In this document: positions 23,191 through 60,253 of the stretch, in pieces
Position numbering within the stretch: the first letter of the stretch is position 1
Layout of the letters: each line of letters opens with the position of its first letter
Assembly: GCA_963662405.2 (NCBI GenBank)
Contig: CAXXKT010000001.1
Span: 96,001-160,000 of the forward strand
From: Syntrophales bacterium
GTDB lineage: Bacteria > Desulfobacterota > Syntrophia > Syntrophales > UBA2210
DNA: 64,000 bases
Direction of reading: 5' to 3'
Notes under the pieces: model-generated
Told to the model about the DNA's origin: nothing
Databases searched by the model: none
What the model saw: the letters and a program-made list of their open reading frames with translations, nothing else
Made by a program: the position numbers and the translations under genes

Positions 23191-23267
<77 letters not shown>

Positions 23268-23281
23268 TTAAAATTAAGGGG

Positions 23282-24376: not shown

Positions 24377-24604
24377 GGCCTCATCTCTCCTTTCTCAAAA
24401 ACAAAACCCCCTGAAGACTTCTCACGGCCATAGGGGACCGCCCGGAGCGTCACCACTTCGGGAATTTTCAGGGGGTTTCTTGGTGTTTGCTGTTTCATGA
24501 CCCTATGGTTTGAGATATAAGTTGTATTGGTTATATAACCAGCATAAGGTATTGTCAAGATGTTTTTTATTGCATGTTCATACTATCTCGGCTATACGTT
24601 TCAC

Positions 24605-24778
24605 ATGGCTACCGACAAACCGAAAGTCATTCTTGTCATGGAAGATGATCTCATCACCCGAATTGATGATTTCCGCTATGAGAACCGCATCCCTTCACGT
24701 GCCGAAGCCATCCGGCGGCTCATTACAGAATCTCTTGAAAGGTACCAAGGGCAACCTCAAAAGAAGTCAACCGAATAA
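24605..24778 (+). CDS. Ribbon-helix-helix (CopG-like) regulator
   Basis: 'IDDFRYENRIPSRAEAIRRLI'. Confidence 0.75.
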   Translation: MATDKPKVILVMEDDLITRIDDFRYENRIPSRAEAIRRLITESLERYQGQPQKKSTE

Positions 24779-24811
24779 AGACACCGCGTAGTGAAGTAAA
24801 CAGGAAAGAAG

Positions 24812-25648
24812 GTGACGATTGTGAAAAATCATAGTCTCCATAGTTTTTGTTGTCTTCTTACGTTTGCTCTCATCTTGGCTTTTTCGCCTAGTATCGGTGC
24901 TACTGATTACCCTGAGATTCATTGCAAGCATTTCATTTACGGTTACCCAACTGGCGCACCACTGAGCAATGACCTCATTATTCGTGATATCTACGCACTG
25001 TCGTCAAATGATGTGACCAAAATGGCGGACTGGGTCTGTTATCGTCTCGATAAAGAAACCGTCACCGGAGACGTGGGAACTTCCCGGAAGTGGAAGGCTG
25101 ATCCGTGGTTGGATGGGGGGGAGACGCTGGAGCCTCTGGATTATACCGGGGCACATGCTACCCTGCATGTAGACAGGGGGCATCAGGCTCCTTTGGCAAG
25201 CTTCAAAGGGACACCGCATTGGGCTGATACGAACATGCTTTCAAATATAACCCCTCAAAAGGCAAACCTCAACCAAGGGCCCTGGAAGAAGCTTGAAGAA
25301 AAAGTGCGTGACCTCGCGCGGGCTGGCAATGTCGTTTATGTGATGACGGGGCCGCTATACGAGCGAGAGATGACACCCCTACCCGGAGCGGATGAAAGCC
25401 ACAAGGTTCCGTCCGGCTACTGGAAGATTATCGTGATACAACCAGGAGAAGATATAGATTCCATCAAGACGGCGAGTTTCATTTTTGACCAAGAGACACC
25501 GAGAAATGATCCAGTAATCGATCATCTCTCTAAGATAAATGCCATTGAGACAAAGTCAGGGCTTGAATTTCTAAGAGCCCTTCCCGACGATAAGGAAGAA
25601 GAGATTGAAGGGTTGCTAAATAAAGATTGGGCCGAATCACGTTTTTGA
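24812..25648 (+). CDS. Secreted DNA/RNA non-specific endonuclease (NucA/Serratia family)
   Basis: Signal peptide; 'DRGHQAP', 'SNITPQKANLNQGPWKKLE', 'TGPLY', 'VPSGYWKII'. Confidence 0.9.
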   Translation: MTIVKNHSLHSFCCLLTFALILAFSPSIGATDYPEIHCKHFIYGYPTGAPLSNDLIIRDIYALSSNDVTKMADWVCYRLDKETVTGDVGTSRKWKADPWLDGGETLEPLDYTGAHATLHVDRGHQAPLASFKGTPHWADTNMLSNITPQKANLNQGPWKKLEEKVRDLARAGNVVYVMTGPLYEREMTPLPGADESHKVPSGYWKIIVIQPGEDIDSIKTASFIFDQETPRNDPVIDHLSKINAIETKSGLEFLRALPDDKEEEIEGLLNKDWAESRF

Positions 25649-25804
25649 TGATCTGTTCACTACCAGTTAAACAGTCGGAAGCCCCAGGCTGAGGGGGGAA
25701 ACCCTGGAGTCCGGGGCTTCGTCAGAGGAATCGGGTCTAAGACGTATCAGGCAAACGACCCGATCAAATTTTACTCCTCTCACCCACGAAATCAAGGATT
25801 TTCT

Positions 25805-26041
25805 ATGCCCGATAAAACAGCCCATATGCTGCAGAAGACCTTGGGCGTCCTAGGCAAGCTGCAAAGCATGAAAGGTGAAGATTTCACGGAAGGAATGAAA
25901 GAGTATCTTCAGCTTGTGGATGAGTTCTATCAAGAGAACGAACATCTCATGGCTCGCCAACAATATAAAGCTGCACAAACAGATCCCGAGTACTTCTTGA
26001 GGCTCCTGGTATTAGCAGAGGCTATCCACAAGGATGAGTGA
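25805..26041 (+). CDS. Hypothetical protein
   Basis: 78-aa ORF with AAGGA upstream; no recognised motif. Confidence 0.5.
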   Translation: MPDKTAHMLQKTLGVLGKLQSMKGEDFTEGMKEYLQLVDEFYQENEHLMARQQYKAAQTDPEYFLRLLVLAEAIHKDE

Positions 26042-26263
26042 AAACGAAGATTGGTCCCTTCACCTACTACTCCTCAAAATAATTTCAGGAAAAAATTGAG
26101 TATTACTTATTGAAATCTTCAGCTTATATACTTCTTGACATAATATTTCGACGGAGCTAAACACATCGTACGTTCTTGGGTATATTAATTGTTAGCCATT
26201 CCCTTGTAAAATATGTATAAAACCAACAGCGGAAGATAGGCGAAACTGAGAGGAAACGCCACT

Positions 26264-27451
26264 ATGCCAAAGCAAGCTAATCAACTTCACAATCAAAACG
26301 AAGAGAAAGAAAAACGGGCGGCAGAGTTAGTCCTTGCCAACCAAGAGCTTGCCCATCAAAATAAATTGAAAGAAAAACGGGCAGCAGAGTTAGTCCTTGC
26401 CAATAAAGAGCTTGCCCATCAAAACGAAGAGAAAGAAAAACGAGCGGCAGAGTTAGTCCTTGCCAACGAAGAACTTTTCTACCAAAACGAAGAGAAAGAA
26501 AAACGGGCGGCAGAGTTAGTCCTTGCCAATAAAGCGCTTGCCCATCAAAACGAAGAGAAAGAAAAACGGGCGGCAGAGTTAGTCCTTGCCAACCAAGAGC
26601 TTGCCCATCAAAATAAATTGAAAGAAAAACGGGCAGCAGAGTTAGTCCTTGCCAATAAAGAGCTTGCCCATCAAAACGAAGAGAAAGAAAAACGAGCGGC
26701 AGAGTTAGTCCTTGCCAACGAAGAACTTTTCTACCAAAACGAAGAGAAAGAAAAACGGGCGGCAGAGTTAGTCCTTGCCAACCAAGAGCTTGCCCATCAA
26801 AATAAATTGAAAGAAAAACGGGCAATCGAACTCTCCAGCCTTTTGGGTGAATTAAAACACGCCAACGCACAACTGTTTGCGGCTTATGAATCCACCATTG
26901 AAGGCTGGTCACATGCGCTGGATTTGCGCGACAAAGAAACCGAAGGTCACACCCAACGCGTGACTGAAATGACATTGAAACTTGCACGCGTGGCGGGAGT
27001 TACCGAAGAAGAGTTGGTACACGTGCGGCGCGGAGCGCTTTTGCATGACATCGGCAAGATGGGAGTACCTGACCACATTCTTCTTAAGCCAGACAAACTG
27101 ACAGATGAAGAATGGGTTGTCATGCGTAAGCATCCCACTTTTGCCTATGAACTACTTTTGCCAATCGCTTATTTACGTAATGCGCTTGATATTCCTTATT
27201 GTCATCACGAAAAATGGGACGGGAGCGGTTATCCACGCAGGTTGAAAGGCGAGCAAATTCCATTTTCGGCGCGTCTCTTTGCGATAATAGATGTGTGGGA
27301 CGCTCTCCGCTCTTATCGTCCGTATCGACAAAGGTGGACAAAGGAGAAAGTAATTGAACATATCAAATCGCTTTCTGGAACGCACTTTGAGCCGAAGGTA
27401 GTGGAATTGTTTTTGAATATGGTGAATGAAGATGAAAAAAACACGGGCTAA
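26264..27451 (+). CDS. HD-GYP phosphodiesterase with N-terminal 21-aa coiled-coil repeats (gene cassette)
   Basis: 'ETEGHTQRV', 'LLHDIGKMG', 'HHEKWDGSGYP', 'DVWDAL...RPY'. Confidence 0.92.
   Translation: MPKQANQLHNQNEEKEKRAAELVLANQELAHQNKLKEKRAAELVLANKELAHQNEEKEKRAAELVLANEELFYQNEEKEKRAAELVLANKALAHQNEEKEKRAAELVLANQELAHQNKLKEKRAAELVLANKELAHQNEEKEKRAAELVLANEELFYQNEEKEKRAAELVLANQELAHQNKLKEKRAIELSSLLGELKHANAQLFAAYESTIEGWSHALDLRDKETEGHTQRVTEMTLKLARVAGVTEEELVHVRRGALLHDIGKMGVPDHILLKPDKLTDEEWVVMRKHPTFAYELLLPIAYLRNALDIPYCHHEKWDGSGYPRRLKGEQIPFSARLFAIIDVWDALRSYRPYRQRWTKEKVIEHIKSLSGTHFEPKVVELFLNMVNEDEKNTG
26297..26826 (+). repeat. 63-bp coding tandem repeat, 8 full units plus a partial
   Basis: NEEKEKRAAELVLAN(Q/K/E)EL(AH/FY)Q repeated, near-identical DNA. 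Confidence 0.95.
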
Positions 27452-27502
27452 CAAACGGATGGAGCCGACTCCTTACAGTCGCGGCTTATCCACTCGTTAC
27501 CA
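27446..27502 (+). other. attC site of HD-GYP cassette
   Basis: GGCTAAC...GGATGGAGCCG-ACT..AGT-CGCGGCTTATCC...GTTACCA hairpin; GGCTAAC is the exact complement of GTTAGCC at 26191 upstream of the gene. Confidence 0.8.
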
Positions 27503-27835
27503 ATTGTAGTCTACGATGAACAGGCCGATTCAAGTTTTGTTTGTTTCAGGAAGAAAATTTCAGCATAAATCAATTGATTCGGAATATAGTGTATTTGCCA
27601 ACTTCCGGTTAGGCTCCCTACCGCCCGTAGACGGGCACCCTGTTTCATCCCTCCGTTACCGGATTTGTTGTCTTGAGTGACTTATCCCCTCTTCCGGTGA
27701 GAGATTAGCACACCGCCCTTTCGGGTATTCAATTTTCAACGATCAAATACGTCCACCTATACAAACATACCAACCTCAAAAAAACATGCCTTGGGGAACC
27801 CCTGAGAGTACCTTGAGAGACCCCTGAGACTATAT

Positions 27836-28060
27836 TCAGTTGTCGGACTCTTGACCCCTTTGATACCTTCCCCAAAGGTACGCAATCACATCACCCTCAA
27901 AGAAATATCTCCGGCCTGATTTTTCGACATACTTCAGGCCCCCACGTATCCAGTTTGACAACTGTCTGCTACGCCCGGACCCGGTAACGGGTAAGTCTAA
28001 CCTCACGGCCAGGTCTTTTTCGCTCCAAACTTCGTTTATTGTCTTTGGCATCTCTGTCAT
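27836..28060 (-). CDS. Small putative HTH DNA-binding protein
   Basis: GGAGGTGA RBS; 'DLAVRLDL...RQLSNWIRGGLKY...GRRYF' excisionase-like pattern. Confidence 0.6.
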   Translation of the reverse strand: MTEMPKTINEVWSEKDLAVRLDLPVTGSGRSRQLSNWIRGGLKYVEKSGRRYFFEGDVIAYLWGRYQRGQESDN

Positions 28061-28262
28061 TAGTGTTCACCTCCATCATGAAAGATTGAATTGCTCTCGC
28101 TTTGTCCTGGTATCCCTTCTCAATGGCCAGGGCATATGCCTTTTGAAGATTCTCCTGTGATTCGTTCAAAAGTAACTGGACACAGGAAGCGCAGATATAA
28201 GCCCCCGCCGTTTCCTCTACTTTTTCAACATCTCTTTCAGTGTTGCAAAGACTACAAATCAT
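27969..28262 (-). CDS. Small CxxC-CxxC zinc-finger protein
   Basis: AAGGAG RBS; 'CSLC...YICASCVQLL'. Confidence 0.55.
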   Translation of the reverse strand: MICSLCNTERDVEKVEETAGAYICASCVQLLLNESQENLQKAYALAIEKGYQDKARAIQSFMMEVNTNDRDAKDNKRSLERKRPGREVRLTRYRVRA

Positions 28263-29002
28263 GGTTCTCCTTTTTTCCCCATTTTTCACCCCACCACGAT
28301 GACTTTTTCGGGATCACTACCCGAGGGGAAGAGTTTTCTGAAATCACTACGCGAGTGAAAAGTTTTAATTTGCGATTTTGCGCGCCGAGGAACCAACCCG
28401 GTTTATCTTTAAGCCCCTGTAGAGATATAAGGACCCCCTCTATTTTTGAGTTCCGGTGTTACGGGAATATAGACTTATCAATACTCTCCCCGGCTCCGGC
28501 TCCCCTCTCCCCCCCCTTATTGTGCGATTTGATGCGATTCATAATATCCTGTGGCGTTCCATATACGGTGCGCTGTGCTGCAATACGTTCCTCTTGCTTC
28601 CTGTAGCGTGTGTGTCGCTCATATACCCCTTTATCATGGTGCCCTGGGGTTCTATTGCTGGTGCGTCTTTGTGCGTCTTTCTGCGGCTATGTGTCGCGTG
28701 CATAAAAATTGACGGTGCGTGACAGAGGTAGGTCACTCTCTCTATCAAATTCACCTTCACCCCCCCTTTGACGACTGTGGGGGGTAGGGGCATTCCATCT
28801 TGTATTTTCATGTTTTTGTATCGCTGCCTTCATCCCCTCTGGTCTCTCCCCTCTATGGTGTGCCTTGTCATTGCAGGACCTTTTCCGTCACAATTGAGTA
28901 GCTTTGCGTCATCGTTTTCGGACACGATAAAAAGAGTTTCCCGCCACGATACCGCGCGCGTACTATTTTCAATGTCAGGTTTTCTTAGGTTCTCGTAATC
29001 CA

Positions 29003-29245
29003 TCAATCAATCACCCGCTTGTTTTCTTCGATGAATCTTTCAATGTCCTGGGTGTCTATGTACTGTTTCCGTCCGCCGGGGAATTGAACAACCGGGATTA
29101 GCCCTTGCCATATCCTTTCCCTCATTGCCCAGGTGGTTAGCCCAAGGCATTCCGCCGCCTGTTTTAACGGTAAGAGACGGGGGGACTGTGGATTTGAAAT
29201 CCCCTGTTCCGGTTTCTTCTCTATTATTCCGCTACGTTCCGCCAT
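29003..29245 (-). CDS. Excisionase/HTH_17-like DNA-binding protein
   Basis: 'LLPLKQAAECLGLTTWAMRERIWQGLIPVVQ..GGRK.YID..DIERFIE'. Confidence 0.8.
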   Translation of the reverse strand: MAERSGIIEKKPEQGISNPQSPRLLPLKQAAECLGLTTWAMRERIWQGLIPVVQFPGGRKQYIDTQDIERFIEENKRVID

Positions 29246-29405
29246 GCTGTGCCCCCTTTGTGCCCGTGATTTGCCCTTTAATTCTGTTCATTCGTTATTT
29301 GTCGGAGATACTTTTCCGTCTCCTTCAATCTCATCATTGAGCACTCTTCTTGCCCAATTCATGACAACCCCCGCATACCCCTCTTACTGACATAGTTATA
29401 AACTC

Positions 29406-29595
29406 TTCGTGTTTCCGAAACCCGAGCGCACAAAAATATTGAAACAGGCATTTTCTCGTTTACCGCGTTGTTATGATTAGCAAAGCAGTCTCTTTTTCGT
29501 CTTTGTTGCTTCTTCATGTTTCCGAAACCCTACCCCTCTGCAACCTGTTTCATACCTTCGTGTTTCCGAAGTGACTCGCTTCGGGTTTCCGAAGT
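29406..29595. repeat. Four iteron-like direct repeats TTCRKGTTTCCGAA
   Basis: Copies starting at 29406, 29513, 29557, 29580 at the 3' end of the Rep-like gene. Confidence 0.7.
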
Positions 29596-30061
29596 TACTT
29601 TTATTTTGTGCATGTGGCTTTTCACGTCATGTCCACGTGGGAGAGACCGCTTCTTTTCGACTTTTTTAAATTTCTCTGTTCCGTAATCTCTCCATCGTTC
29701 CGATATTGCATACATGGAATAATCATGGCCAAAGGTCCCTCCCTGGTGCTCGATCTCCACGAAGCCAACCTCAACAAGTTTCTTGATTGCCTCGTAAAAG
29801 GCTGTGGTCTTGATACCGAGCGCAGCCGCTTCAGCATAAGGAAATACGATATTATGGTTCTCATAGATTCTTTTTGAGCGTCCCCCTTGCTTGATGTTTG
29901 ACCAAGTCCTTTTTTGCAGTAACCTCAGCAAAACCCGGATAGCGGAAGCATTCAATTCCTTAAATGCCTGAGAAGCTAAGATTTCCCATTGGTCTTCCCC
30001 CGATTTAGTGGACATACCGAAGAGTTTCTCTTATAGACATAGAGTAACGAGGAGGCATGTC

Positions 30062-30364
30062 ATGGTTAATGGGAAGGATAAGCGGTATTTTGATCGGGAG
30101 TTTAAGTATGAGGCGATTCGGTTAATGGATGAAGGTAAACGTTCTGTAAGTGATCTAGCTAAGGATTTGAATGTTCATAAAAACCTGCTTCATCAGTGGA
30201 GGCGTAAATATCGGGCGGACATGGAGCAAGCTTTTCCCGGGAAAGGTCATTTGAAGGCACCTGAGGAGGAACTTCGTCGGTTGCGGCGGGAGAATGAGAG
30301 CTTAAGGGAGGAGAGGGAAATCTTAAAAAAAGCGTTGGCCATCTTCTCGAAACACCCAAAGTAA
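30062..30364 (+). CDS. IS3 OrfA (HTH + leucine zipper)
   Basis: 'FDREFKYEAI...DLAKDLNVH..LL..WR', 'EILKKALAIFS'; A7G slippery site at 30325-30332. Confidence 0.92.
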   Translation: MVNGKDKRYFDREFKYEAIRLMDEGKRSVSDLAKDLNVHKNLLHQWRRKYRADMEQAFPGKGHLKAPEEELRRLRRENESLREEREILKKALAIFSKHPK

Positions 30365-30375
30365 AGTATGAGTTC

Positions 30376-31224
30376 ATGGAAAATCACCGTTCCGAATTTT
30401 CGGTGAAGAAGATGTGCCGAGTGCTGGGGGTATCCAGGAGCGGTTATTACATATGGGGGAAACACAGCAAGAGTGACCGCCAGAGAGAGAATGAGCGGTT
30501 GCTGATGTATATTCGGGACGCTTTCATAAAGGGTCGCGGCACATATGGTAGCCCGAGGGTGACAGCGGAACTTCAGGCCCACGGGATTAAGTGTAGCAGG
30601 AAACGAGTGGCTCACCTGATGAAGAGTCATGGGATTAAGGCAAAGACGAAACGCAGGTTCAAGGCCACCAAAAAATCCAAGCATGAGTTTTTAGTGGCGG
30701 ATAATCTTTTAAATCGGAGATTTTCGACAGATGTGGCCAACAAGGTGTGGGTTTCTGATATTACCCTTATTTGGACGAGAGAGGGTTGGCTTTATCTGGC
30801 AGCGATCCTGGATGTTTTCAATCGTAAGATTATTGGATGGTCGATGGATAACAGATTGAGTCATAAGATTCTTGCAGATGCCTTGCACAAGGCGATCAGG
30901 CAGCGGCGACCCAAAGCTGGTGTTATGTTTCATTCAGATCGTGGAACTCAATATACCAGCTATGCTTTTCAGGGGCTGATGGAGAAATATGGTTTTATTC
31001 AGAGCATGAACTCTTCGGGGAATTGTTACGACAATGCTCTTATGGAATCGTTTTTCCATACCTTAAAGACGGAGCTTGTTTATTTTGAGAAGTATCAGAC
31101 AAGACAGGAAGCTCGCGGGAGCATATTCGAATATATCGAAGTTTTCTATAATTGCGTTAGAAGACATTCATCATTGAATTATTGCTCTCCCGCTGAGTTT
31201 GAACGAAAAGCGTGTGTAACTTAG
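30376..31224 (+). CDS. IS3 OrfB DDE transposase (-1 frame to OrfA)
   Basis: 'WVSDIT', 'FHSDRGTQY', 'DNALMESFF'. Confidence 0.94.
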   Translation: MENHRSEFSVKKMCRVLGVSRSGYYIWGKHSKSDRQRENERLLMYIRDAFIKGRGTYGSPRVTAELQAHGIKCSRKRVAHLMKSHGIKAKTKRRFKATKKSKHEFLVADNLLNRRFSTDVANKVWVSDITLIWTREGWLYLAAILDVFNRKIIGWSMDNRLSHKILADALHKAIRQRRPKAGVMFHSDRGTQYTSYAFQGLMEKYGFIQSMNSSGNCYDNALMESFFHTLKTELVYFEKYQTRQEARGSIFEYIEVFYNCVRRHSSLNYCSPAEFERKACVT

Positions 31225-31595
31225 TGGGGTGTCCACTTTTTCGGGGCAAGATCACATGATATGTATACGTTACGTCTAAGCTGGTATTTGTGTTGTTTCC
31301 CTCTCATTAAGCGCCTCCTGGAGCGCGTACCCTGGTTATATGATTCCGGGGAAGGTGGAGGCCAGGACTCCCCACTCTTCGGATACAATCCTATCCCCGG
31401 AAAGCGTTATTTGTTGTAGCTGTGCCATGTGTGTTCTTTTCATTAGACCCCTTTTTGTTTACCTCCCTGCCTCATTTAATCGCAGGTGGGAACATCAAAA
31501 ATAAAAAAGCCATGAATGACCCGGTTTAAGGGCCTCTCATGGCTTGCTTGCTTTGCAAGTTTTTGTTGCTTGCTTTTAGGCTGGCTTGCCTTTAT

Positions 31596-31772
31596 CTATA
31601 TATTTAAAGCCAATTTATCACTCTGGGTTTTAACAAGACGGTATTTTTTTATTTCAATATTTCCGTCCTTGATAATTAAATCCCGTGGGAACTTCCCTTT
31701 ACGATCCACAATGATTTGTTCTTGGTTAATAGATTCAATTGTTTTTATACGTGTGACGTCCCCTTCCTTCAT
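31596..31772 (-). CDS. 58-aa protein ending in a HemP-like motif (below ORF-track cutoff)
   Basis: AAGGGAG RBS; MKEGDVTRIK...KKYRLVKTQSDKLALNI. Confidence 0.45.
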   Translation of the reverse strand: MKEGDVTRIKTIESINQEQIIVDRKGKFPRDLIIKDGNIEIKKYRLVKTQSDKLALNI

Positions 31773-32517
31773 TCTGTGGTCTCCCTTTCGCTAATATTAT
31801 TTATGTGAATCATTCTTGCGACTCTTTTAATTAATGACTTTGAGCACATAACCACCTTTGGCATCATAAAGCCGTTTCTGTATAATTTCTTTTGAGGGGG
31901 TATTGGCGCCGTCAAGAAAGCTTTTCTCTTTTTTCTTGACTTAGGGGCGACAGGAGATTTACATTAGGATCACAACTTGACGATATAAATCTATCGTCGC
32001 CCCGCCTGATGGTTTCTCTGCCAGGAGAGACCGTCGGGCTTTTTTTTACCCTCATTGTTGCCTTATCTTATTACAAATTCATAAATACTGAGAAGCAGTA
32101 ATTTAGGCTAAAAACTCAAACTGGGCTAATAAGCTAATATAACTATAGATATTTTTTTAATTTGTTGATAATCTTCCAAAGAATTCAGGGGAGTTCAAAG
32201 AAGAGAATCTCCCCCGGTTTATTGCTGTTTCCGATAATATTATATATATCAAGCACGTGGAGTCTATCCCCCATAATAAGTATTCTTGCATGTCTCCGCC
32301 CCCTTCGCGTCCCTGTAGGTAGGTGGGGGAAGACCGGGCAGGGTCCCCGGTTTTTCGGTAGCGAACCTATCCCCCTAAATTGTGCCTTTTCCTGTGCCCG
32401 TGAGGTCAAATTTTGCTGAATTTTACCGCATATTCCCCAACGTGAACAACAAAATAAACACCTAATCTTTCAAATAGTTGCCTTTTCCCTTGCGTTTTCC
32501 AACTTTCTTTTTTCGAA

Positions 32518-32563
32518 CTCCGGAGCCAAAGGCCCTGGGTTCGAGTCCCAGATCGCCTACCAT
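32518..32563 (+). repeat. attR: duplicated tRNA-Arg 3' end
   Basis: Identical to 23223-23268. Confidence 0.95.
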
Positions 32564-32737
32564 AAAAGTTATAAGGGGTTATAGCTGTCCTATAACCCCT
32601 TATAACAACCATCTTTCATTTTACCCCACACCCTACCCCACACGGGAAGATGAATTTGGTCCTTTTCAGGCAATATGGGCGAAATATTTGTTGGGGTGGA
32701 TGTTGATATATACTTGAAGGAATATCGTTGTTTCTTC

Positions 32738-34175
32738 CTCCTACCATGAATTTATATAGAGTGGTGTATAATCGATTAGTCGATGTTCATGGGAAGGCGG
32801 GAGGACTCAGTGCTTCCTGGGCGTTAGAGCCCTCATTTCAGTATGTCCCAAGCCTCTGTGAACCATAATAGGTTGGTTGGATCATTGAATCCTTGTCACG
32901 CTGGAGGATTGGTCTGGAGGCTATGGTTCCTGCTTTTCCTTTCATTCGTTAGGAGGTGAAGCGATGTCAGGATTAACGGACAGCTTTAATGATTTTGTTG
33001 GAATAGATGTTTCCAAAGATAAATTCGACGCCTGCGGAATCACAAGAGATGCAGCACAGCTCTTCCAGTTTTCCGCGAGCATGGATCGTAAGGGCTTCGA
33101 TAAGTTGAGGGAACATCTTGCTTCTGTTTCCATTTCGTCCGTTTTAATCGGGATGGAATCAACAGCATCTTATCATATCAATCTTTTCTCGTACTTGATT
33201 TCAGAGGGTTACCGAGTGATCATCATTAATCCTCTGCTGATTTCCAATTACGTGAAGATGCAGCTCCGGAAAACCAAGACAGATAAGAAGGATGCCGCTG
33301 TTATTGCCATGTTTCTTCTTGCACACAGAAATACCCTGAGCCAACGATCATATTCTCCTTTGATTTCCGAGCTTCGGGATCTTTCACGTCAGCGGGAGAA
33401 TCTGGTTGATGAGATGACCGCTCTGAAGATCAACATCAAACGGCTCCTGAATATCACTTTTCCGGAATTGGAGCATATGACGTTGGTCTTTACGAAGTCT
33501 ATGCTGAAGCTTCTCCAGCAATACCCATCTGCTGTTGCTCTGAGAAGTGCGGATCCTATTCAATTGTCCCAGACGCTCATTGCAGATTCCTATGGGCACA
33601 AAAGAGAAGCATTTACCGCGGAGTTAATGAAGGCAGCTAGAGCGTCGGTCGGTACCCACAGTGCTGCGAAGGAAGTCATTCTTAAACAACAGGTGACCTT
33701 GCTCCTTCACTTTGAAGAGGACCTGCAAGAGATAACCGGCATATTAATTGAGATGAGCCGAAATCTGATGGAAGAAGACATAAACATTCTGACTTCCATA
33801 AAGGGCATTGGTAACAAAACTGCTGTTAATTTTCTCATTGAGATGGGGGGCGACATCAATCAGTATGATGATTCCGGGAAGATCATTGCCATGGCGGGCT
33901 TAGATCCGGCTGTTTACCAGTCAGGCAAACATGAAGGTAAAGGCAAGATCACGAAACGAGGGAACCGCCATTTACGGAGAGTCATCTGGATGATGGCAAC
34001 CAGGGTGATCAACTATAGCGATGTTTTCAAGACTTACTACCTCAAACGTAGAAAGGAGGGATTGCCGTATAAGATGGCAGTATTGGCCACCGCTCACAAA
34101 TTGATCCGTGTCATCTATGCCATGCTGACGCAACGGACAACTTTCTGCCCACAGATAAATTCATGATAGTTGACT
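32738..34175 (+). mobile_element. IS110-family element (copy A)
   Basis: CT core at 32738-39 and 34174-75; sub-terminal IR CATGAATTTAT (32745) / ATAAATTCATG (34155); ~220-bp left non-coding end. Confidence 0.85.
32964..34166 (+). CDS. IS110-family DEDD recombinase/transposase
   Basis: 'VGIDVSK', 'MESTASY', 'KTDKKDA', 'SIKGIG', 'AGLDP..YQSG', 'KRGNRHLR'. Confidence 0.95.
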   Translation: MSGLTDSFNDFVGIDVSKDKFDACGITRDAAQLFQFSASMDRKGFDKLREHLASVSISSVLIGMESTASYHINLFSYLISEGYRVIIINPLLISNYVKMQLRKTKTDKKDAAVIAMFLLAHRNTLSQRSYSPLISELRDLSRQRENLVDEMTALKINIKRLLNITFPELEHMTLVFTKSMLKLLQQYPSAVALRSADPIQLSQTLIADSYGHKREAFTAELMKAARASVGTHSAAKEVILKQQVTLLLHFEEDLQEITGILIEMSRNLMEEDINILTSIKGIGNKTAVNFLIEMGGDINQYDDSGKIIAMAGLDPAVYQSGKHEGKGKITKRGNRHLRRVIWMMATRVINYSDVFKTYYLKRRKEGLPYKMAVLATAHKLIRVIYAMLTQRTTFCPQINS

Positions 34176-34227
34176 GAAAGAGATGGGATCAAGAGTGAAG
34201 AAAAAGTGGAGGATTTCTTTCCGTATT

Positions 34228-34283
34228 CATTAACACAGAGTTCACCGGGGCGCTTACGCATCCGGTGAAACAACTTGTTCAGC
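34228..34283 (-). other. attC site ending array-1 cassette
   Basis: Minus strand GCTGAAC...GTTTCACCGG-ATGCGTAAGCGC-CCCGGTGAAC...GTTAATG; R'' nearly complementary to GTTCGGC at cassette start (35245-35251). Confidence 0.75.
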
Positions 34284-34613
34284 ATTCGTGCTTTTAGACT
34301 CCGGGAGTGTGCCGGTTTTTAGTCGATACTCGTAGGTCTGTTCCTTTTTGCATCGGTTTACGATGGTTGTCTCATTAACGGGTGCTCCCATTGTCCAGTA
34401 GACTATTTCGTCTTCATCGAAATACGTAATACGTTTCTTGTAAAAGTGCCCCTCGTATCCGTATGATCTGATATGCCCGACAAGCTGAATAAATAATTCT
34501 TCGTCAAGGCGGTCACGTACAATATACTCGTGTGGCCAAGTAGGCGCATAGGTCTTGGCAAACGTCCACTTCTGCTCTGTGATAAAAGCTTTGAGGTTGG
34601 TGGGAAGCTTCAT
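34254..34613 (-). CDS. Hypothetical protein (cassette gene)
   Basis: 'WTFAKTYAPTWPHEYIVRD...YWTMG'; stop lies inside the attC. Confidence 0.7.
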   Translation of the reverse strand: MKLPTNLKAFITEQKWTFAKTYAPTWPHEYIVRDRLDEELFIQLVGHIRSYGYEGHFYKKRITYFDEDEIVYWTMGAPVNETTIVNRCKKEQTYEYRLKTGTLPESKSTNAEQVVSPDA

Positions 34614-34647
34614 CGTCTCATTCCTGTTCGGTGTCCCGGATGGCCTT

Positions 34648-35226
34648 TCAATATGGGATTCGTTCGTCCAGCCCGCGAATTGTCTCAGGTGCTGCAATAA
34701 CGAGTTGTCCGCGATTCTTCTCGCTCTTGGTTCCGATATGATTGTCAGCCGGATATAGCGCCGTGTCTACAGGATGGTTGTTCCTCAGATTCCAACCGAT
34801 GCACCCTTCAATGTGTTTTCGCAATTGAGGGTCAACCTCTACTGGGGCAAAGAAGATGTTTAGAACGGACACATATTTGATGACTGAACCATGGATGGTC
34901 TCGTATGCGTCAATCTGCTTATGCGGTCCATCTGGTGATTTGTCTCTCCACAGCCCCGGCCAAATGAGTTCGCAGATGCCTTGTTGCGCCTTGTCGGGAT
35001 CGAATATACCATAGTTGAGTCCGAGGATATGGATGAGGTGTTCCCGTTGTCGTTTTGCGAGAGACACCGTCTCTCCCACGTAGTGCACCATGTGTGTACG
35101 GTCAGCATGTTGCTGAATAGTCCATAGATATACTCCGGCAACACTGGCGCATGGTGCCGTGAAAACAGAATTATGACGATCCAGAAAGCTGAATGGCCCA
35201 GTAAAGTTTAGATTAAGCGTTTCCAT
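34648..35226 (-). CDS. GIY-YIG-like nuclease (cassette gene)
   Basis: 'GVYLWT...HYVGET...RQREH'. Confidence 0.6.
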   Translation of the reverse strand: METLNLNFTGPFSFLDRHNSVFTAPCASVAGVYLWTIQQHADRTHMVHYVGETVSLAKRQREHLIHILGLNYGIFDPDKAQQGICELIWPGLWRDKSPDGPHKQIDAYETIHGSVIKYVSVLNIFFAPVEVDPQLRKHIEGCIGWNLRNNHPVDTALYPADNHIGTKSEKNRGQLVIAAPETIRGLDERIPY

Positions 35227-35248
35227 GTGTTCCGTATCCTGGTTGCCG

Positions 35249-35281
35249 AACAATGTTTATATGGATCCTGATAAAAACCTA
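35249..35281 (-). other. attI-like site, copy 1
   Basis: Minus strand TAGGTTTTTATCAGGATCCATATAAACATTGTT directly abutting cassette start; 32/33 identical to 62267-62299. Confidence 0.65.
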
Positions 35282-35383
35282 TTTTCCTTCCTGCTATACG
35301 TACCAAAGTGGTGATTGCAACTGAGGTAATTTAGGTTCATCATCTGTCTGTATTTCTTATTGATTCAGGATAAGGAGGCAGAG

Positions 35384-36532
35384 ATGACCATGAAAGACGA
35401 TACTACACGGAAGGCAGCAATGTCTTCTGCAGTTACAGAACATCCCACCGCAACGACATCCTGGCATTACCAGACTCGTTTCCGTTTTTCATTACATCGT
35501 GATGGAAGTGTTGAGACACTCGCTACGATTTTGCAGCATCTTTCCCACATGGATCTTCCGGGCACGGATCATGTTGCGGCCTATCTGCGTTACCTGACCT
35601 ATCGTAACCGGCGCCCCCGGACGTTGACAAGTCGTTTTGGTTCCATAGTTTTGTTCCTCGCCATGGTGCGTGACAGCGGGAAGACACGTATTGAAGACGT
35701 TACCAGGAGAGATATTGAGTGCTTTATCGAGCACGAGCAGGACAGGGGCAATAAGATTACGACGATACGGACAAAGCTCGTCAATGTGCAAGCCTTTCTG
35801 CGCTATCTCGTGGAGGAGGAGATTGTTTCCCCGGATGTGTTTGGCAGGAGGATACGGTTGCAGCTGCCGGAGCGGCTGCCGAGGGCTATGGATCCTGACG
35901 ATCTACAGAAGCTGTTATCCGTGATTGACGATACCCGGGACCGAGCCATGATCATGGTACTGTTGAGGACGGGGATGCGCATCGGCGAGTTGCTCAATAC
36001 GAAGGTATCAGATGTCCACATCGGGGAACGGAGGATAGAGATTTACGAAGGCGAGAAGAACCGCCTGGGGCGCGTGGTGTATCTCAGTGACGATGCGATC
36101 CGTGCGCTCCGGAGGTGGTTGCAGGAGAGGAATCCCTGGGAGGCGTACCTTTTTTCCACTCATAGAAGCATATACCAGATGTCGTACAGCACCGCCCGTC
36201 TGATCTTCCATCGATATCTTGAGAAGGCGGGGTTACGTGACCGGGGCTATACGCTCCATACGCTTCGGCACACCTTTGCAACGGAGTTTCTCAACGCTGG
36301 CATGCGCCTGGAGTGTCTCCAGGTGCTGCTGGGTCACCGGAGTATCGAGGAGACCAGGCGCTATGCCAGGCTTACCGACAAGACCCGCGAGGAAGAGTAC
36401 TTTCGGGCCATGGCCCGGATAGAAGGGAGGGATAGTGATGGACATAACCAATGTCATCGTGAACTGGCGGCGGTTTCTGAAACGGAGAAACTGTTCGCCC
36501 AATACCGTGAAGAACTATCTGAATCTCATTAA
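35384..36532 (+). CDS. XerC/D-like tyrosine recombinase 1 (not IntI)
   Basis: SAM-like N domain; RTGMR, K, HTLRH, LGH, Y intact; no IntI-specific insertion. Confidence 0.92.
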   Translation: MTMKDDTTRKAAMSSAVTEHPTATTSWHYQTRFRFSLHRDGSVETLATILQHLSHMDLPGTDHVAAYLRYLTYRNRRPRTLTSRFGSIVLFLAMVRDSGKTRIEDVTRRDIECFIEHEQDRGNKITTIRTKLVNVQAFLRYLVEEEIVSPDVFGRRIRLQLPERLPRAMDPDDLQKLLSVIDDTRDRAMIMVLLRTGMRIGELLNTKVSDVHIGERRIEIYEGEKNRLGRVVYLSDDAIRALRRWLQERNPWEAYLFSTHRSIYQMSYSTARLIFHRYLEKAGLRDRGYTLHTLRHTFATEFLNAGMRLECLQVLLGHRSIEETRRYARLTDKTREEEYFRAMARIEGRDSDGHNQCHRELAAVSETEKLFAQYREELSESH

Positions 36533-37331
36533 ACACTTTGTTGTCTGGGCGGACGTGCCCGTTGAGGAGGTGACGCATGCAACGGTATCGCGCTACATAG
36601 AGTATCTGATGCAGAAGCGGCTATCGCCCAAGACCGTCAACTGTCATCTGAACGGTATTCGTCAGTTCTATCACTATCTGCGGGAAGAGGAAGGGATCGG
36701 TATTGTCAATCCCATCAGGAACAAACATACACAGAAGATGCCCCGACCCCTTCCCCGGCATTTACGAGACGAGCAGGTGGATCGTTTCTTTAACGTTGTG
36801 AATGGACACCGTGACCGTGCCATGTTCATGCTCATGCTCCGTTGCGGTCTCAGGGTGGAAGAGGTTGCCACCCTTGCCATCGGTGCCATAGACATCAAAC
36901 GCAGGGCTATCTTGATTGAGGACGGCAAGGGTGCAAAGGACCGGGTCGTGTATATGAGTAATGATGTGATTCAGTCACTGGCAGCCTATCTGAGAGTACG
37001 GCCGGCATCCCGGGCACGGAAGATCTTTCTGGCAGAGAAAGAGCCGTGCAGGGGCCAGCCCATCTCCATCCGCGGCATTCAACGGCGCATGGAACACTAT
37101 GCCCGCAAAGCGCGGATCAAAATGTCCTGTCATCATCTCCGGCATACGATGGCTACGCAGATGCTCAATGCCGATGCTGATCTGTGTACGATTCAGGATC
37201 TTCTCGGCCACAGCAATATAAAAACCACCCAGAGGTATTGCCGTGTATCGAACATGAAGGTTCAGAGAGATTACTTCAATGCCATGGAGGTCATTATGCA
37301 CCGAAGGGCCTGCAACCCACATAACACTTGA
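36435..37331 (+). CDS. XerC/D-like tyrosine recombinase 2 (not IntI)
   Basis: RCGLR, GKGAKDR, HHLRH, LGH, TTQRY; overlaps recombinase 1 by ~98 bp. Confidence 0.92.
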   Translation: MMDITNVIVNWRRFLKRRNCSPNTVKNYLNLIKHFVVWADVPVEEVTHATVSRYIEYLMQKRLSPKTVNCHLNGIRQFYHYLREEEGIGIVNPIRNKHTQKMPRPLPRHLRDEQVDRFFNVVNGHRDRAMFMLMLRCGLRVEEVATLAIGAIDIKRRAILIEDGKGAKDRVVYMSNDVIQSLAAYLRVRPASRARKIFLAEKEPCRGQPISIRGIQRRMEHYARKARIKMSCHHLRHTMATQMLNADADLCTIQDLLGHSNIKTTQRYCRVSNMKVQRDYFNAMEVIMHRRACNPHNT

Positions 37332-37509
37332 CGGAACAGAGAATATGTGAAATGGTAAACAACAACTAACCGCATAGAATCAATAGGTAAATCAGACTAT
37401 AGTACGTATAGCTTCCTGTAGTTGAGAAAAACAAGGGTGAAGAAGAAGTAGAATATTTCTTCCTGCAATCATTAGGAAAATAGTCGCTGTTGTCACTATT
37501 TTTCAAGAC

Positions 37510-40500
37510 TTATACGGCGTTATTTTTGGACTTCAAGATAATAGTGTCTGTATAAGCTTTTTGAAAAAGGTCGCTTTCTGCCGTACCGCTTGTCAATCCC
37601 GATGCAAGATGATTGAAAATTCTTTTTTTAGACTCAATCTCATATTCAGCGATCATTTCTGCTAATAACGATTTCGATCTGTTTTCTATATCTCTGTCCA
37701 TATCAATCCCATAGGCAAATTCCACGACGTCTTTATATATACTCCAAGCTTGTGCCCAGTATTTTATATCTTCGTGGTCACGTCTTATTCTCTTTAAAAG
37801 TTCAAGAGATATAGACAGAAATGATCTCGCTAAGAAGTTAAGCTTGTCCCTTTCTGCTTTTTGAACGAACTGTATTTTTTTGAACCAAACATACCAAATA
37901 GCTGTAATTATATTTTGTTCAACTAATATGCCATCCTCTTTACTGATCATGTATGATAAAAATTGTCCAATCTCGGTCAATGCGTTTTTGTAATCCCCTT
38001 TAAACCACCAAATAGCATTTATGAATGAATTGAAGGCTTGGTGATTATTTAATATCTCCAAATAATTCTCTATGCTTCCCCCCGCCTCTGAAAGATCATC
38101 TTCGAGAACAATCAATATATCCTTATAGTTTATCGGCATTCCAACCACATTAAATGCGCATAGCTGGGCGAATTTCTCTGCGGCTTCTTTTTGAGTTATT
38201 ACCTTCTTTTCTTTTAATATCGTTATTATATCGATTGTAGATATAGTATCTTCATAATGATTCTTACCACAAACATAGAGCCTTGATATTGCATCATCTG
38301 TATAAAATATGGGTTTTAATGAGTCATAAACAGACTTTATTTTATCTAATTCACTGAAAATATTATTTTCATCTATTATATCTTTACTTGAAGGTTGTTG
38401 AATCTGTTCAACATATCTTGATAATAATTCAACTATATCTTTAGCTTTGGTTGCATAGGGGATAAAAACAAATTGTTGAGCCAACATCTGTAAGTTAGCG
38501 ATTGAGTCTTTTGCGATTGCAATTTTAGGAAATATATCAAAAATGTATTCTAATAATGCTAAGTCGAATAAAATCAACAAAGCCACATCATCAATAAGAG
38601 GCATTCGCCCTCTAAGGTTCTCTATTCTTCTTGGCACATAGGGCCCGGGGCTAATAGTCAGCTGATATTGCAGATCATCCTTTCCGGTTATCTTGGACAA
38701 CTCCCACAGGTGAATAAAGTTCGAAACGTTCAATAAAAAATGATGCCTGATTAAATAAGGAACAGGAAGCGTGCCGCTGCTTAAAAGATTTTCATTCCGC
38801 TGGTACCATTCCCTTTTTTCTTTTGTGAATCCTGTTATAGTTTCTAGTTGAGATAATAGATCTTCGTGCGATTTTTCTTTTACATGGAATGATCTTAAAA
38901 CTTTTGACTCTGGAAATCTCTCTGTATATTTCTTAAGCCGTTTTTGAAACTCTTGAACGTTCTCATCTTGAACCGTTTTTTCAGGATCAAGTGTTGCCAC
39001 AAAGAAATTTAACAAATAAAGTCCTTCTTCAGCTTCATCATTTTGGTCACACAATTGGCCATATTTTAAACATATATCAATCAACCTCTCACTCTTTGGA
39101 TTGATATACATTTCAATGTTAAACAACATCCTCAAAAAATGTACCTTCTGCTTTTGATAAGTTGCTTTCTCAAGAAGTCGGGTGACCAAGGTTTTGGCTT
39201 TTTCGATCAGACCACATCTTGCTGATATATTTATATAGATTTCAAGTGCAAACGGGTCATGTTTTTCTCCTTGTGAGATTTCTTCTAAAAGTGTTAATGA
39301 TTTTCCTGTTTCTCCAATTCCATCTAGTGCTAAAGCCTCAAATGCTTTAAACTGAGAGTTGGTTGAAAATCTGATTTGTGCCTTGCGGGATGTTGCTAAA
39401 ACGCCATGCCAGTCTTGGACTGTTACTTTAGCCTGACAAAGAATAGTGTATTCGCTGTCTAGTAAATCCCTCTCCGAAATGATATCAATCGAAATTTCAA
39501 TAATTTTTTGTGCTGCGGCGTTTTCATATGGGTTAAGGTTATTAAAAAGTTGAGCTAATAATTGATTGTGTTTGTGACCTTCTTTGTAAACATCATATAG
39601 TTTTTCAATTGCCTCAGGCTTTTTTAACGCTTCCTGATTTGCGTGCAAAATAAAATCATATACTGCGATCAATGACCTTGAATTAGGGACCGTTTGTAGT
39701 GCCTCAAGAAACTTGTCTCTTTCAGTATACTTCATGAGATCATTAGCGCATTCAGCTGCAATTGCGATAACGGTGTCATAGTTAGCGGGTTTTTCTTTGA
39801 TTAGATCGTCAAGTATTTCAATAGCTAATTTGACCACTTCCGCTTTATCGTTTTTCCAATAAGTTAAAATGATTTTATTGGCTTTATTGTTTAGTGTATT
39901 TGGTAGCTTACATAATTGCCGCTCTGCAATGGTTCGATCACTTGTATGCATTGCAACTTGAAACAAACTTTCCTGTACAATTTGAATGGATGGTCTGATG
40001 TCTGCCAATTTAACGAGGTGTTTTTTAACGATTTCTGGCTCATTAAAATACATGCCTAAAATAGAGAATATATCGATCATCGATTGAACGTCAGGGGGGT
40101 ACCCTAATTTATCAGCTAAATTCATCGCAGATATTAACTCTATCCATGCGTTCTTTAATATTTCCGGATTCATGTCAGGAGTGCCTGCGAAAGATATCGC
40201 TTTGTCATCAGGAGTTTTTCTGAATCCAAGATTGAAGTATGATCTGGCTTTTAATGATCTTAAACTTAGTTCTTGTCTATCAGTTAAATCTTGTTCTGAG
40301 AATGCTTTGTTGACTTGGTTTATACAGTCATTGTATGAGCCTGAAAGCAAATGTATAAGCGCTTTAAGGACGAAAATGTCTTGTTCGTCCTGGTTTTCTA
40401 AAATTTTAAAGGCTTCTTCATATCTTTCGTTTAAAGCCAGCAATTTTGACTTCAGCCGAAGGTAATCAAGATCATTCTTTTTTTCTATCTCTGATAAAAT

Positions 40501-41478
40501 GCCATCAATTGTTTTGTCGTCTTTCCTTTCATCCGGAATTCTCGATTCTAAATAGGCGAGATGATATTTTTGAAACTCCTTAGAAGTTAGATGGGCTTGC
40601 TTGTGTAAGTTGAGTGCTTCTTCACGTTTCCCAACAAGACTTGCCAAGTAGGCTCTTTGGTAATAGTATTCAGATTGTTCATGCTGACTTGCTTCTTCTA
40701 ATTGATCTGCTAATTTATCAAGCCTGTCTTGAGCTAGTATTGCGTTATTTAAAGATAGAATCTCGGAGACTTTTTTTAATTCATACGCAAAACTACCTTC
40801 TGGCGCATCTAACCAAGGTGTCTCAGTTTTGTTAAGGATTGTATCGAGAGCTACTTTATTGGTCCCAAAAATGCTTCCAATCTGATTAATCTTATTTATA
40901 GGATCAGAATATTTTTTCTCTACTATATCGTATATTCCTTCCAGAACCCTCTTTTTTTCTAAACGGTTGTTTAAGTATGGCAAAACGTTTAGACTTGAGT
41001 TTAAGACATTTTCGACAGGAATGTGAAATGTGTGTGTATCCTCGCCTAAATGATCGAGAGTTGGCTTTCCTGCTCGAAGCTGGTCAATTTTTTCATCCAT
41101 CCACAAATAGTAAGCTGTACACTTCCTAGGTTCTTCATCTTGGGTAAGATCCGCAAACACCAACATAACTGGGTTTTCGATTCTTATATAATAATTTAAA
41201 TTTCGAATGTCTAAAGGTTGAGAGAAATGTTTACCATCAGCACTGAGCCATTTATTTCTGCCATCCTTTATCTGTGCTGAACCCTTTATTTGAGCATTAA
41301 ACACGTTCTTATAATGCCCTTGTTCAACGATTTGCACTTGCATGTCTAAACCAGCATCAGCATCACCATCAGTCTGAGTTGGTCTCCATGACTTGGGATG
41401 ACAGCTGTTAAACGTCATAACTGCAAAATGCCCTATTTCTTGTGAAACAGATTCTTTTGGTAACTTAGTCTCTTTCAT
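37510..41478 (-). CDS. Large DUF4365-like nuclease + TPR-like + PIN-like protein (putative defence)
   Basis: 'DAGLDMQVQI...FNAQIKG' REase-type N-terminus; helical repeats; 'LIDDVALL...IFYTDD' PIN-like C-terminus; AT-rich. Confidence 0.7.
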   Translation of the reverse strand: MKETKLPKESVSQEIGHFAVMTFNSCHPKSWRPTQTDGDADAGLDMQVQIVEQGHYKNVFNAQIKGSAQIKDGRNKWLSADGKHFSQPLDIRNLNYYIRIENPVMLVFADLTQDEEPRKCTAYYLWMDEKIDQLRAGKPTLDHLGEDTHTFHIPVENVLNSSLNVLPYLNNRLEKKRVLEGIYDIVEKKYSDPINKINQIGSIFGTNKVALDTILNKTETPWLDAPEGSFAYELKKVSEILSLNNAILAQDRLDKLADQLEEASQHEQSEYYYQRAYLASLVGKREEALNLHKQAHLTSKEFQKYHLAYLESRIPDERKDDKTIDGILSEIEKKNDLDYLRLKSKLLALNERYEEAFKILENQDEQDIFVLKALIHLLSGSYNDCINQVNKAFSEQDLTDRQELSLRSLKARSYFNLGFRKTPDDKAISFAGTPDMNPEILKNAWIELISAMNLADKLGYPPDVQSMIDIFSILGMYFNEPEIVKKHLVKLADIRPSIQIVQESLFQVAMHTSDRTIAERQLCKLPNTLNNKANKIILTYWKNDKAEVVKLAIEILDDLIKEKPANYDTVIAIAAECANDLMKYTERDKFLEALQTVPNSRSLIAVYDFILHANQEALKKPEAIEKLYDVYKEGHKHNQLLAQLFNNLNPYENAAAQKIIEISIDIISERDLLDSEYTILCQAKVTVQDWHGVLATSRKAQIRFSTNSQFKAFEALALDGIGETGKSLTLLEEISQGEKHDPFALEIYINISARCGLIEKAKTLVTRLLEKATYQKQKVHFLRMLFNIEMYINPKSERLIDICLKYGQLCDQNDEAEEGLYLLNFFVATLDPEKTVQDENVQEFQKRLKKYTERFPESKVLRSFHVKEKSHEDLLSQLETITGFTKEKREWYQRNENLLSSGTLPVPYLIRHHFLLNVSNFIHLWELSKITGKDDLQYQLTISPGPYVPRRIENLRGRMPLIDDVALLILFDLALLEYIFDIFPKIAIAKDSIANLQMLAQQFVFIPYATKAKDIVELLSRYVEQIQQPSSKDIIDENNIFSELDKIKSVYDSLKPIFYTDDAISRLYVCGKNHYEDTISTIDIITILKEKKVITQKEAAEKFAQLCAFNVVGMPINYKDILIVLEDDLSEAGGSIENYLEILNNHQAFNSFINAIWWFKGDYKNALTEIGQFLSYMISKEDGILVEQNIITAIWYVWFKKIQFVQKAERDKLNFLARSFLSISLELLKRIRRDHEDIKYWAQAWSIYKDVVEFAYGIDMDRDIENRSKSLLAEMIAEYEIESKKRIFNHLASGLTSGTAESDLFQKAYTDTIILKSKNNAV

Positions 41479-57700: not shown

Positions 57701-57792
57701 ATAGCGCCAACATACTTACGCCCTCTGTCGGTGACGCGAATACCCACTGTCCCGAATACAAGGCGTTCATGGTTAACGTGACGAAGAGTTAG
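54742..57792 (+). CDS. fdnG: Formate dehydrogenase alpha subunit (Tat selenoprotein), copy 2; UGA at 55327-55329 read as Sec
   Basis: TRRGFL Tat, CCYCAVGCG; HQARV-U-HSPTVAALAESFGRGSMTNH joins 54742..55329 and 55378..57792 in frame. Confidence 0.95.
55345..55363 (+). other. Candidate SECIS hairpin, fdnG copy 2
   Basis: GCGGCUCU-GGC-AGAGUCGU, 15 nt after UGA. Confidence 0.75.
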
Positions 57793-57803
57793 GAGGGTGG
57801 ACA

Positions 57804-58607: not shown

Positions 58608-58608
58608 G

Positions 58609-59501: not shown

Positions 59502-59508
59502 TAGCTTT

Positions 59509-60243: not shown

Positions 60244-60253
60244 AGTGAATTGA

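Follow-up and report, generated by a model that had tools for sequence, protein, structure and literature searches.

The locus studied here, a tandem of two tyrosine recombinase genes next to a short array of cassette genes in a Syntrophales bacterium, is an orphan attI with attC cassettes that has been invaded by a two-recombinase transposon and by insertion sequences (ISs) of the IS110 family. It lies in a stretch of 64,000 nucleotides, hereafter the window, which corresponds to C1:96001-160000, C1 being contig CAXXKT010000001.1 of assembly GCA_963662405.2. We estimate at roughly 85% the probability that two unrelated site-specific systems stand side by side in this locus, namely an autonomous transposon made of the recombinase pair and a truncated orphan attI followed by attC cassettes. 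An earlier note on the same DNA had instead seen an integron-like platform anchored to the recombinase pair, and had offered three options: a cassette-capture system of two subunits working without the integron integrase IntI, a transposon that inserts at the G|TT crossover points of attC sites and mobilises cassettes, or an element whose end mimics attI and is loaded by an IntI acting in trans.

The features of the locus are listed below. D2 designates a repeat of about 65 nt, matched by nhmmer 16 times in the genome, and R1 a covariance model of attC sites.

32734-34183, IS110-family IS, with a transposase at 32964-34166 matching PF01548 and PF02371; end mapped from another copy
34184-34232, plus strand, D2 module whose left part is cut off by the IS110-family IS (nhmmer match C1:130175-130234)
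34225-34286, minus strand, predicted attC site (R1, 28.9 bits, full length)
34254-34613, minus strand, second cassette gene, 119 aa, without family match
34648-35226, minus strand, first cassette gene, 192 aa, without family match
35249-35281, minus strand, putative attI site of IntI type, orphan and truncated, homologous to sites downstream of intI
35287-35293, plus strand, left 7-bp core CTTCCTG (attL side), identical to 37412-37418
35294-37411, plus strand, putative two-recombinase transposon, copy 1, 2118 bp; ends and size kept in 39 related loci
35384-36532, plus strand, recombinase 1, 382 aa from the ATG; the open reading frame (ORF) opens at TTG 35360
36435-37331, plus strand, recombinase 2, 298 aa, overlapping recombinase 1 by 98 nt
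37412-37418, plus strand, right 7-bp core CTTCCTG (attR side), also the first 7 nt of D2
37412-37474, plus strand, D2 module that served copy 1 as landing pad; a short hairpin comes next, at about 37477-37503
37510-41478, minus strand, gene of a 1322-aa protein, with its 3' end beyond D2 and the hairpin

Borders, cores and proteins of the two-recombinase element

As judged by comparison of related loci, the two overlapping recombinase genes probably represent the whole coding content of a compact, autonomous transposon of about 2.1 kb. Copy 1 is bounded by terminal inverted repeats (about 11-15 bp) and flanked on both sides by the same 7 bp, CTTCCTG. It begins on the left with CTATACGTAC and finishes on the right with the inverse of this sequence, GTACGTATAG; the family consensus starts with CTATACGTA(A/C)CAAA and ends with the inverse of this sequence. 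A scan of one genome per species yielded 77 related loci, mainly from Syntrophales, Smithella and other deltaproteobacterial metagenome-assembled genomes (MAGs), and 65 of these 77 loci of other genomes show the same overlapping tandem of both genes. When the loci are aligned on the start of gene 1, upstream similarity begins at one and the same point in every aligned locus, and this point is the start of what the earlier note had called the leader. Beyond this left border, the DNA is unrelated among loci, even between copies in one MAG. Both ends of the element were located in 39 loci, with a length of 2095-2273 bp in 38 of them and an insertion of 3.5 kb in the remaining one. An insertion of about 3.5 kb interrupts recombinase 2 in locus L020.

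The heptamers flanking the element are identical in 35 of the 39 loci with both ends. Nine types of heptamers were observed, each tied to a subfamily: CTTCCTG in 18 loci, GTAGGTG in 8, CAAATAC, CACCTAC and CGTGCCT in 3 each, and four singletons. They follow the subfamilies and are thus no random duplications. Unequal heptamers are limited to four of the 39 loci, too few cases for a rule; in all four, the right (distal) copy is the canonical heptamer of the subfamily and the left one deviates. The GTAGGTG and CACCTAC cores are reverse complements of each other, so that one subfamily has the same core inverted with respect to its genes.

Recent copies are also observed. Copies of the same MAG have interiors that are 99.5-100% identical, with flanks that are 54-60% identical in global alignment, which is the range of other unrelated flank pairs. 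Assembled contigs of another sample in Logan contain the same element with about 98% identity, matching 35283-37415 only, with other DNA on both sides. The distribution is patchy: the family was detected in 18 of 201 genomes of the order, with 1-6 copies per genome, and in none of the four genomes of the same genus that were searched. Locus L029 contains three copies of the pair within 21 kb, one of which is inverted, and L030 contains two.

Both proteins match PF00589 (E-values of 2.3e-37 for recombinase 1 and 1.2e-37 for recombinase 2), both possess the catalytic R, K, HxxR, H and Y, and both lack the insertions that characterise IntI, as seen in the IntI of the genome itself. In this respect, the description given in the earlier note, two overlapping tyrosine recombinases with a full set of catalytic residues and no IntI insertion, was accurate. 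Recombinase 1 exhibits an N-terminal extension of about 70 aa; its homologues are 382-383 aa long, share 68-99% identity with it and, for the closest ones, are mostly found on contigs of 1-6 kb. Among the PLSDB plasmids, no relative exceeds 31% identity. The recombinases score 72.8 and 120.1 bits with the integron-integrase model TIGR02249, whose cut-off is 265; with these scores and without the IntI-specific insertion, they were rejected as IntI. A role in XerC/XerD dimer resolution was rejected as well: the scores with the XerC and XerD equivalog models (144-205 bits) are under the cut-offs of 330-335, and the pair is multicopy (two diverged copies here and up to six elsewhere) and patchy.

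By analogy with other tyrosine recombinases, both proteins would bind the inverted-repeat arms at the ends of the element. The element would be excised as a circle, with a junction made of the right arm, the 7-bp core and the left arm, and would re-insert by conservative exchange, with two strand-exchange pairs at the edges of the 7-bp overlap, in a target with the same heptamer. The heptamer would be found on both sides because the element re-inserts at a target that already carries it, and the carried heptamer would be the main target determinant because the overlap must match between partners. More speculatively, one recombinase may bind the arms of the element and the other the flank of the target, and the N-terminal extension of recombinase 1 may read a distal motif.

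The attI-like site and its cassettes

The homologies of the 33-bp site indicate that it is probably an orphan and truncated attI of an IntI-type integron, located outside the transposon. It recurs at 62267-62299, where 32 of the 33 bases are identical. On the minus strand, the predicted crossover point G|TT falls between 35251 and 35250, which is where the similarity between the two copies ends, and the site is separated from the core of copy 1 by 5 nt. The earlier note had described the site as attI-like and as recurring together with its leader, and both descriptions hold: the site is homologous to the one downstream of the intI gene of the genome, and the leader (35292-35365) is found again at 63786-63859 with 85% identity. 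In this second copy, an IS110-family insertion (62340-63785) parts the leader from the site. The note was also right that the window contains no intI, as no match above the TIGR02249 cut-off was found in it; the genome search revealed one intact intI (C1:2211990-2212934, 471 bits) and one broken intI (C1:30608-31553) elsewhere.

The intact intI is followed by an IS3-family insertion and then, in the same direction as the gene, by ...GATCCGTATAAACATTG|TT. Beyond this intI-linked site, an array of plus-strand ORFs, each with a terminal attC hairpin, extends from about 2,214,400 to about 2,230,600. The site of the window, read on the minus strand, is identical to the intI-linked site over GATCC and over the stretch ATAAACATTG|TT, as well as at one of the two bases between them. 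The core pattern GATCC..ATAAACATTG|TT occurs six times in the genome and the reversed control pattern does not occur at all. More diverged attI-like copies are also present in the genome; of all these sites, no more than two have the recombinase pair close by.

When metagenomes were scanned for the 17-base core, at least 122 stretches were retrieved (L096-L217). An extended platform motif is shared by 89 of the 122 listed stretches, and the remaining 33 resemble the chance matches that would be expected with a pattern of this length. Among the matches listed, the coding sequence of the IntI C-terminus is found just upstream of the site and on the same strand in 14 of the 89, with the end of the coding sequence at 148-164 nt from the site in 7 of those 14. 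Also among the matches listed, 34 sites have at least 1300 nt of upstream sequence, and four of these are accompanied by an intI gene. Orphan or duplicated attI platforms seem to be common in this integron lineage. On contig L146/L147, two sites lie 1445 nt apart, with a 3'-end fragment of intI before each of them.

A system in which the recombinase pair takes the place of IntI and uses the 33-bp site for cassette capture, as in the first option of the earlier note, could account for the divergent orientation of the pair and the cassettes and for the presence of two copies of the pair near two copies of the site, the latter looking like a core site with two inverted arms around GGATCC. Nevertheless, we consider this very improbable. 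The site is outside the conserved borders of the element, and the conservation of the site with homologous pairs that could be expected is lacking: the 33-mer was found upstream of the pair at 0 of 70 homologous pair loci, and the site (with up to 2 mismatches) or an IntI-like gene at 0 of 77 pair loci. Conversely, the pair is absent from all 34 listed metagenome sites with sufficient upstream sequence, and four further copies of the site in the genome (up to 7 substitutions) are devoid of the pair. In addition, the site follows genuine intI genes, both in the genome and in metagenomes, and an IS parts the site from the pair in copy 2.

With regard to the cassettes, the hairpins are probably attC sites and the minus-strand genes ordinary attC cassettes, as far as covariance matches and gene layout indicate. 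The two minus-strand genes reported by the earlier note are present at 34648-35226 and 34254-34613, and the hairpin that it placed at 34228-34283 is the best R1 match of the window (34225-34286, minus strand, filters off), with a window E-value of about 1e-4 and a genome-wide E-value of 0.006. The next matches in the window score 22.2 bits (60251-60318, minus strand) and 21.4 bits (27443-27505, plus strand). Genome-wide, the matches other than the seeds of the model form clusters in the true array, in the window, beyond the 3' end of the broken intI and in several other low-GC patches. A rule-based attC scan yielded 62 clusters, mostly scattered, and missed the hairpins of the window; it was only used to locate the true array.

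The five cassette proteins have no Pfam or NCBIfam family above threshold. The product of 61028-62248 has a sub-threshold NCBIfam match (15.9 bits against a cut-off of 40), and 59509-60243 is the only cassette ORF matched by PHROGs, in families of unknown function. The 1322-aa protein, which possesses an N-terminal DUF4365, is encoded in a stretch of 34-38% GC, compared with about 57% for the host, and its gene is placed as a cassette-like unit after D2 and the short hairpin. PADLOC gave one weak match for the cassette proteins and the 1322-aa protein, between the latter and an Argonaute-associated nuclease domain model (E-value of 2e-4).

The cassettes were most likely inserted and excised by the IntI of the genome acting in trans. 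From the third option of the earlier note, IntI in trans is thus retained as the likely loader, but the element does not end in the attI-like site. With just 33 nt left of the platform of about 170 nt, the attI of copy 1 may not work well as a substrate. The arrangement shares with a complete integron the attI head and the attC sites located on the same strand, 3' of the cassette ORFs, but lacks a neighbouring intI. Clusters of attC sites without an integrase are known as CALINs. Like these, the arrays described here consist of cassettes without a neighbouring intI, IntI being encoded elsewhere in the genome. In contrast, they keep an attI-like head of their own, which is unusual for an integrase-less cluster, and their tails are bounded by the D2 repeat.

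The D2 module and the adjacency of the two systems

On the plus strand, D2 starts with CTTCCTG and ends with ...TCATTA(AC), followed by a hairpin, which was seen by eye in at least 7 of the 16 copies; attC-model matches lie beside 3 copies. On the cassette strand, D2 starts at the attC crossover (G|TTAATGA...) and ends in the heptamer. Beyond the heptamer is found either the attI platform (copy 1 and metagenome contig L134 are examples) or an extension of about 60 nt containing GTAGGTG/CACCTAC, which is the core of the target of the second subfamily. In L134, the order is attC, D2, attI platform, cassette, attC and D2. Copy 2 is inserted in the extension of a D2 module, with an IS110-family IS inserted beside it. 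The following features of the window belong to or adjoin the second array.

59383-59444, plus strand, D2 module, unoccupied, at the tail of the second array
60251-60318, minus strand, predicted attC site of the second array (R1, 22.2 bits)
59436-59504 (13.4 bits) and 60948-61027 (17.5 bits), weaker attC candidates
62267-62339, minus strand, second putative orphan attI site (33 nt), extended by a further 40 nt or so of the platform
62340-63785, minus strand, IS110-family IS between attI and transposon copy 2, with PF01548/PF02371 in 62562-63530; ends deduced from other copies in the genome
63788-64000, plus strand, left end of transposon copy 2, GTAGGTG core type, leaving the window; right end at C1:161939

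The recurrence of the pair beside attI can be explained by these modules, because both copies have hit their own heptamers in a D2 module, which itself adjoins attI. The second option of the earlier note was therefore correct in considering the pair as a transposon, but not regarding its target: insertion occurs at the element's own 7-bp core, about 60 nt from attC and not at G|TT, and no cassette is carried. An association of homologous pairs with attC cassettes, on which the first option of the earlier note depended, is essentially lacking: among 70 related loci, only L031 and L049, from one other MAG, have an attC-model match next to the element.

In the CTTCCTG-type copies of other genomes, the right flank keeps an A at +2, a T at +4 and a motif at about +38 to +50, and the left flank keeps only a T at -2. 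The D2 model of this genome finds no match in the flanks of other genomes (best E-value of 0.12, for L030), so the likeness of flanks across genomes rests only on column statistics. As positions are conserved over about 50 nt to the right of the heptamer and not to its left, and as D2 always starts with the heptamer, D2 might be the true right end of a longer element and move with it, the inverted repeat and the heptamer being internal. This is extremely improbable: copies that are 97-100% identical inside have right flanks that are only 52-73% identical over the first 60 nt, the genome contains 16 copies of D2 but only 2 elements, and the contigs of another sample cease to match at 37415. D2 was also considered as a decayed left end of the transposon and rejected, as a hidden Markov model built from 39 left ends matches the two real ends of the genome but not D2. 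The ORFs next to the element have no preferred orientation, and a promoter and terminator scan was not informative.

The transposon might, on the other hand, be specialised for integron arrays, homing to D2 by attC/attI and moving whole [attI-cassettes-D2] modules. Recombination between the heptamers at the head and the tail of such a module would then explain the many orphan attI arrays. Both copies in the genome are located in D modules beside attI; in the genome as well as in L134, D2 runs from an attC crossover to the target heptamer; and [attI ... D2] modules can be read at no fewer than 6 places of the genome from the position and orientation of the matches. The same spacing of about 55 nt between heptamer and attC in L031 and L049 and the conserved positions up to about +50 in the right flanks of other genomes would also fit. 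We still consider this quite unlikely, since the other 68 of the 70 related loci have no attC-model match beside the element, the neighbouring ORFs are not biased in orientation, attI or intI is found at none of the 77 loci, and the D2 model fails in the flanks of other genomes. Furthermore, no module flanked by two heptamers plus transposon arms was seen.

Several points weigh against the interpretation that we prefer, that of an autonomous transposon beside an unrelated orphan attI array. No circle junction or empty site was found in the data of other samples, which consist of contigs only, so we infer transposition from comparative data alone. On the integron side, 30 of the 34 listed metagenome sites with at least 1300 nt upstream have no intI nearby, and we infer the dependence of such orphan sites on IntI. 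R1 is a home-made model built from 7 attC seeds of the intI-linked array only, its E-values are rough, and the hairpin that terminates the second array (59436-59504) reaches only 13.4 bits. Regarding the adjacency of the two systems, both genome copies of the pair adjoin attI-like sites, which is non-random, and our account of this relies on D2, itself unexplained. Finally, in L031 and L049 the attC-model match is 54-59 nt from the right end of the element; because of these two loci, some link to integron arrays exists.

Known systems, neighbouring elements and significance

A 2023 paper distinguishes five groups of prokaryotic tyrosine-recombinase transposons: ICE/IME, SE, GInt, RIT and Tn554 (PMC10214605). 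With Tn554 and SE, the element has in common that a single operon at one end encodes two tyrosine recombinases, that the terminal inverted repeats are imperfect, that the core is short (7 bp, compared with 6 bp in those elements) and that the target specificity is marked. In those elements, the core copy of the target is proximal to the recombinases and the carried copy is distal (PMC10214605); here, the distal copy is the canonical one in the only four loci with unequal heptamers, and the two core copies are nearly always identical. The element also differs from Tn554 and SE by its two recombinases of 382 and 298 aa and by the absence of a large recombinase, TnpC/Srap, Tfp and cargo; no third gene is possible because the two genes fill the 2118 bp. 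Its hosts are uncultured Syntrophales-like bacteria rather than Firmicutes or Gammaproteobacteria. The likeness to Tn554 and SE considered here is one of organisation.

The element resembles RIT elements (PMC3414803 and PMC10214605) in being compact, in having only adjacent or overlapping tyrosine recombinases between terminal inverted repeats, and in the fact that mobility is deduced from distribution. In contrast with RIT, it has two genes, in all 65 loci, instead of three, and inverted repeats of about 11-15 bp instead of 34 bp; the distinction is based on organisation. BIM modules were rejected as a likeness, since they consist of one recombinase and one unrelated protein (PMC3414803). Full-text searches for elements with paired or tandem tyrosine recombinases, with ISfinder and subscription journals outside their scope, revealed no account of such a two-gene element, which is apparently a tyrosine-recombinase transposon of a hitherto undescribed, two-gene kind.

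Both IS110-family ISs possess the DEDD transposase domain and the Transposase_20 domain (PF01548 and PF02371). A repeat of about 220 bp (62340-62560) forms the transposase-distal end of the IS. It is found alone about 45 times in the genome with 72-87% identity, and exhibits a TTGACA-type promoter-like stretch as well as a terminator-like hairpin followed by a T run at its end; these sequence traits would fit a gene for a small RNA, perhaps that of the guide ("bridge") RNA of the IS110 family. Solo copies of this IS end are located directly upstream of 2 other attI platforms in the genome, and part of it is found upstream of attI in metagenome locus L183. The IS is joined at ...GG|TG to a GTAGGTG-type heptamer region both at 63781-63787 of the window and at C1:165345-165352, the former junction adjoining transposon copy 2 and the latter an unoccupied D module. 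Because this junction is found twice, the same target seems to be used by the IS and by the second subfamily of the transposon. The IS1111-attC group comprises IS110-family elements that target integron sites. Here likewise, an IS110-family IS is found at an integron site, the junction of the attI platform and the D module of copy 2, but the target adjoins attI and the heptamer region and is not within attC.

Elsewhere in the window, a genomic island of about 9.3 kb occupies a tRNA gene (island at 23191-32571, tRNA at 23191-23264), the last 54 nt of the tRNA being repeated at 32518-32571 with 96% identity. It contains a tyrosine integrase of 364 aa (23282-24376) and an int-alpA RNA match (32311-32377), both on the minus strand, together with a transposase gene of the rve type (integrase core domain; 30376-31224). 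A 63-nt unit is present in eight tandem copies at 26222-26914, within an ORF of 395 aa (26264-27451), which is followed by the attC-model match at 27443-27505. The Rfam scan of the window returned only the tRNA and int-alpA, with no match in the locus under study. An inverted pair of diverged paralogous gene blocks (2740-6986 and 55050-59259, 71-81% identical over about 4 kb) brackets the entire low-GC mobile region.

For mobile DNA, these results point to a compact family of two-gene transposons that is widespread in uncultured relatives of sulfate reducers and syntrophs and that breaks short-read assemblies, as indicated by the homologues on contigs of 1-6 kb. The subfamily-specific heptamers suggest a simple rule of core homology for target choice. 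For integrons, a tempting false lead is removed, as attC/attI recombination in this locus needs no recombinase besides IntI, and attI-type sites without a neighbouring intI are common among the metagenome matches listed (the 30 of 34 mentioned above). It is possible, although doubtful, that the element founds an undescribed class of minimal transposons in which the carried 7-bp core determines the target, and that it homes to D2 and forms, with the D2-headed attI units, a second layer of integron mobility. If so, this second layer would spread orphan attI arrays, the pair possibly moving whole [attI-cassette-D2] modules.

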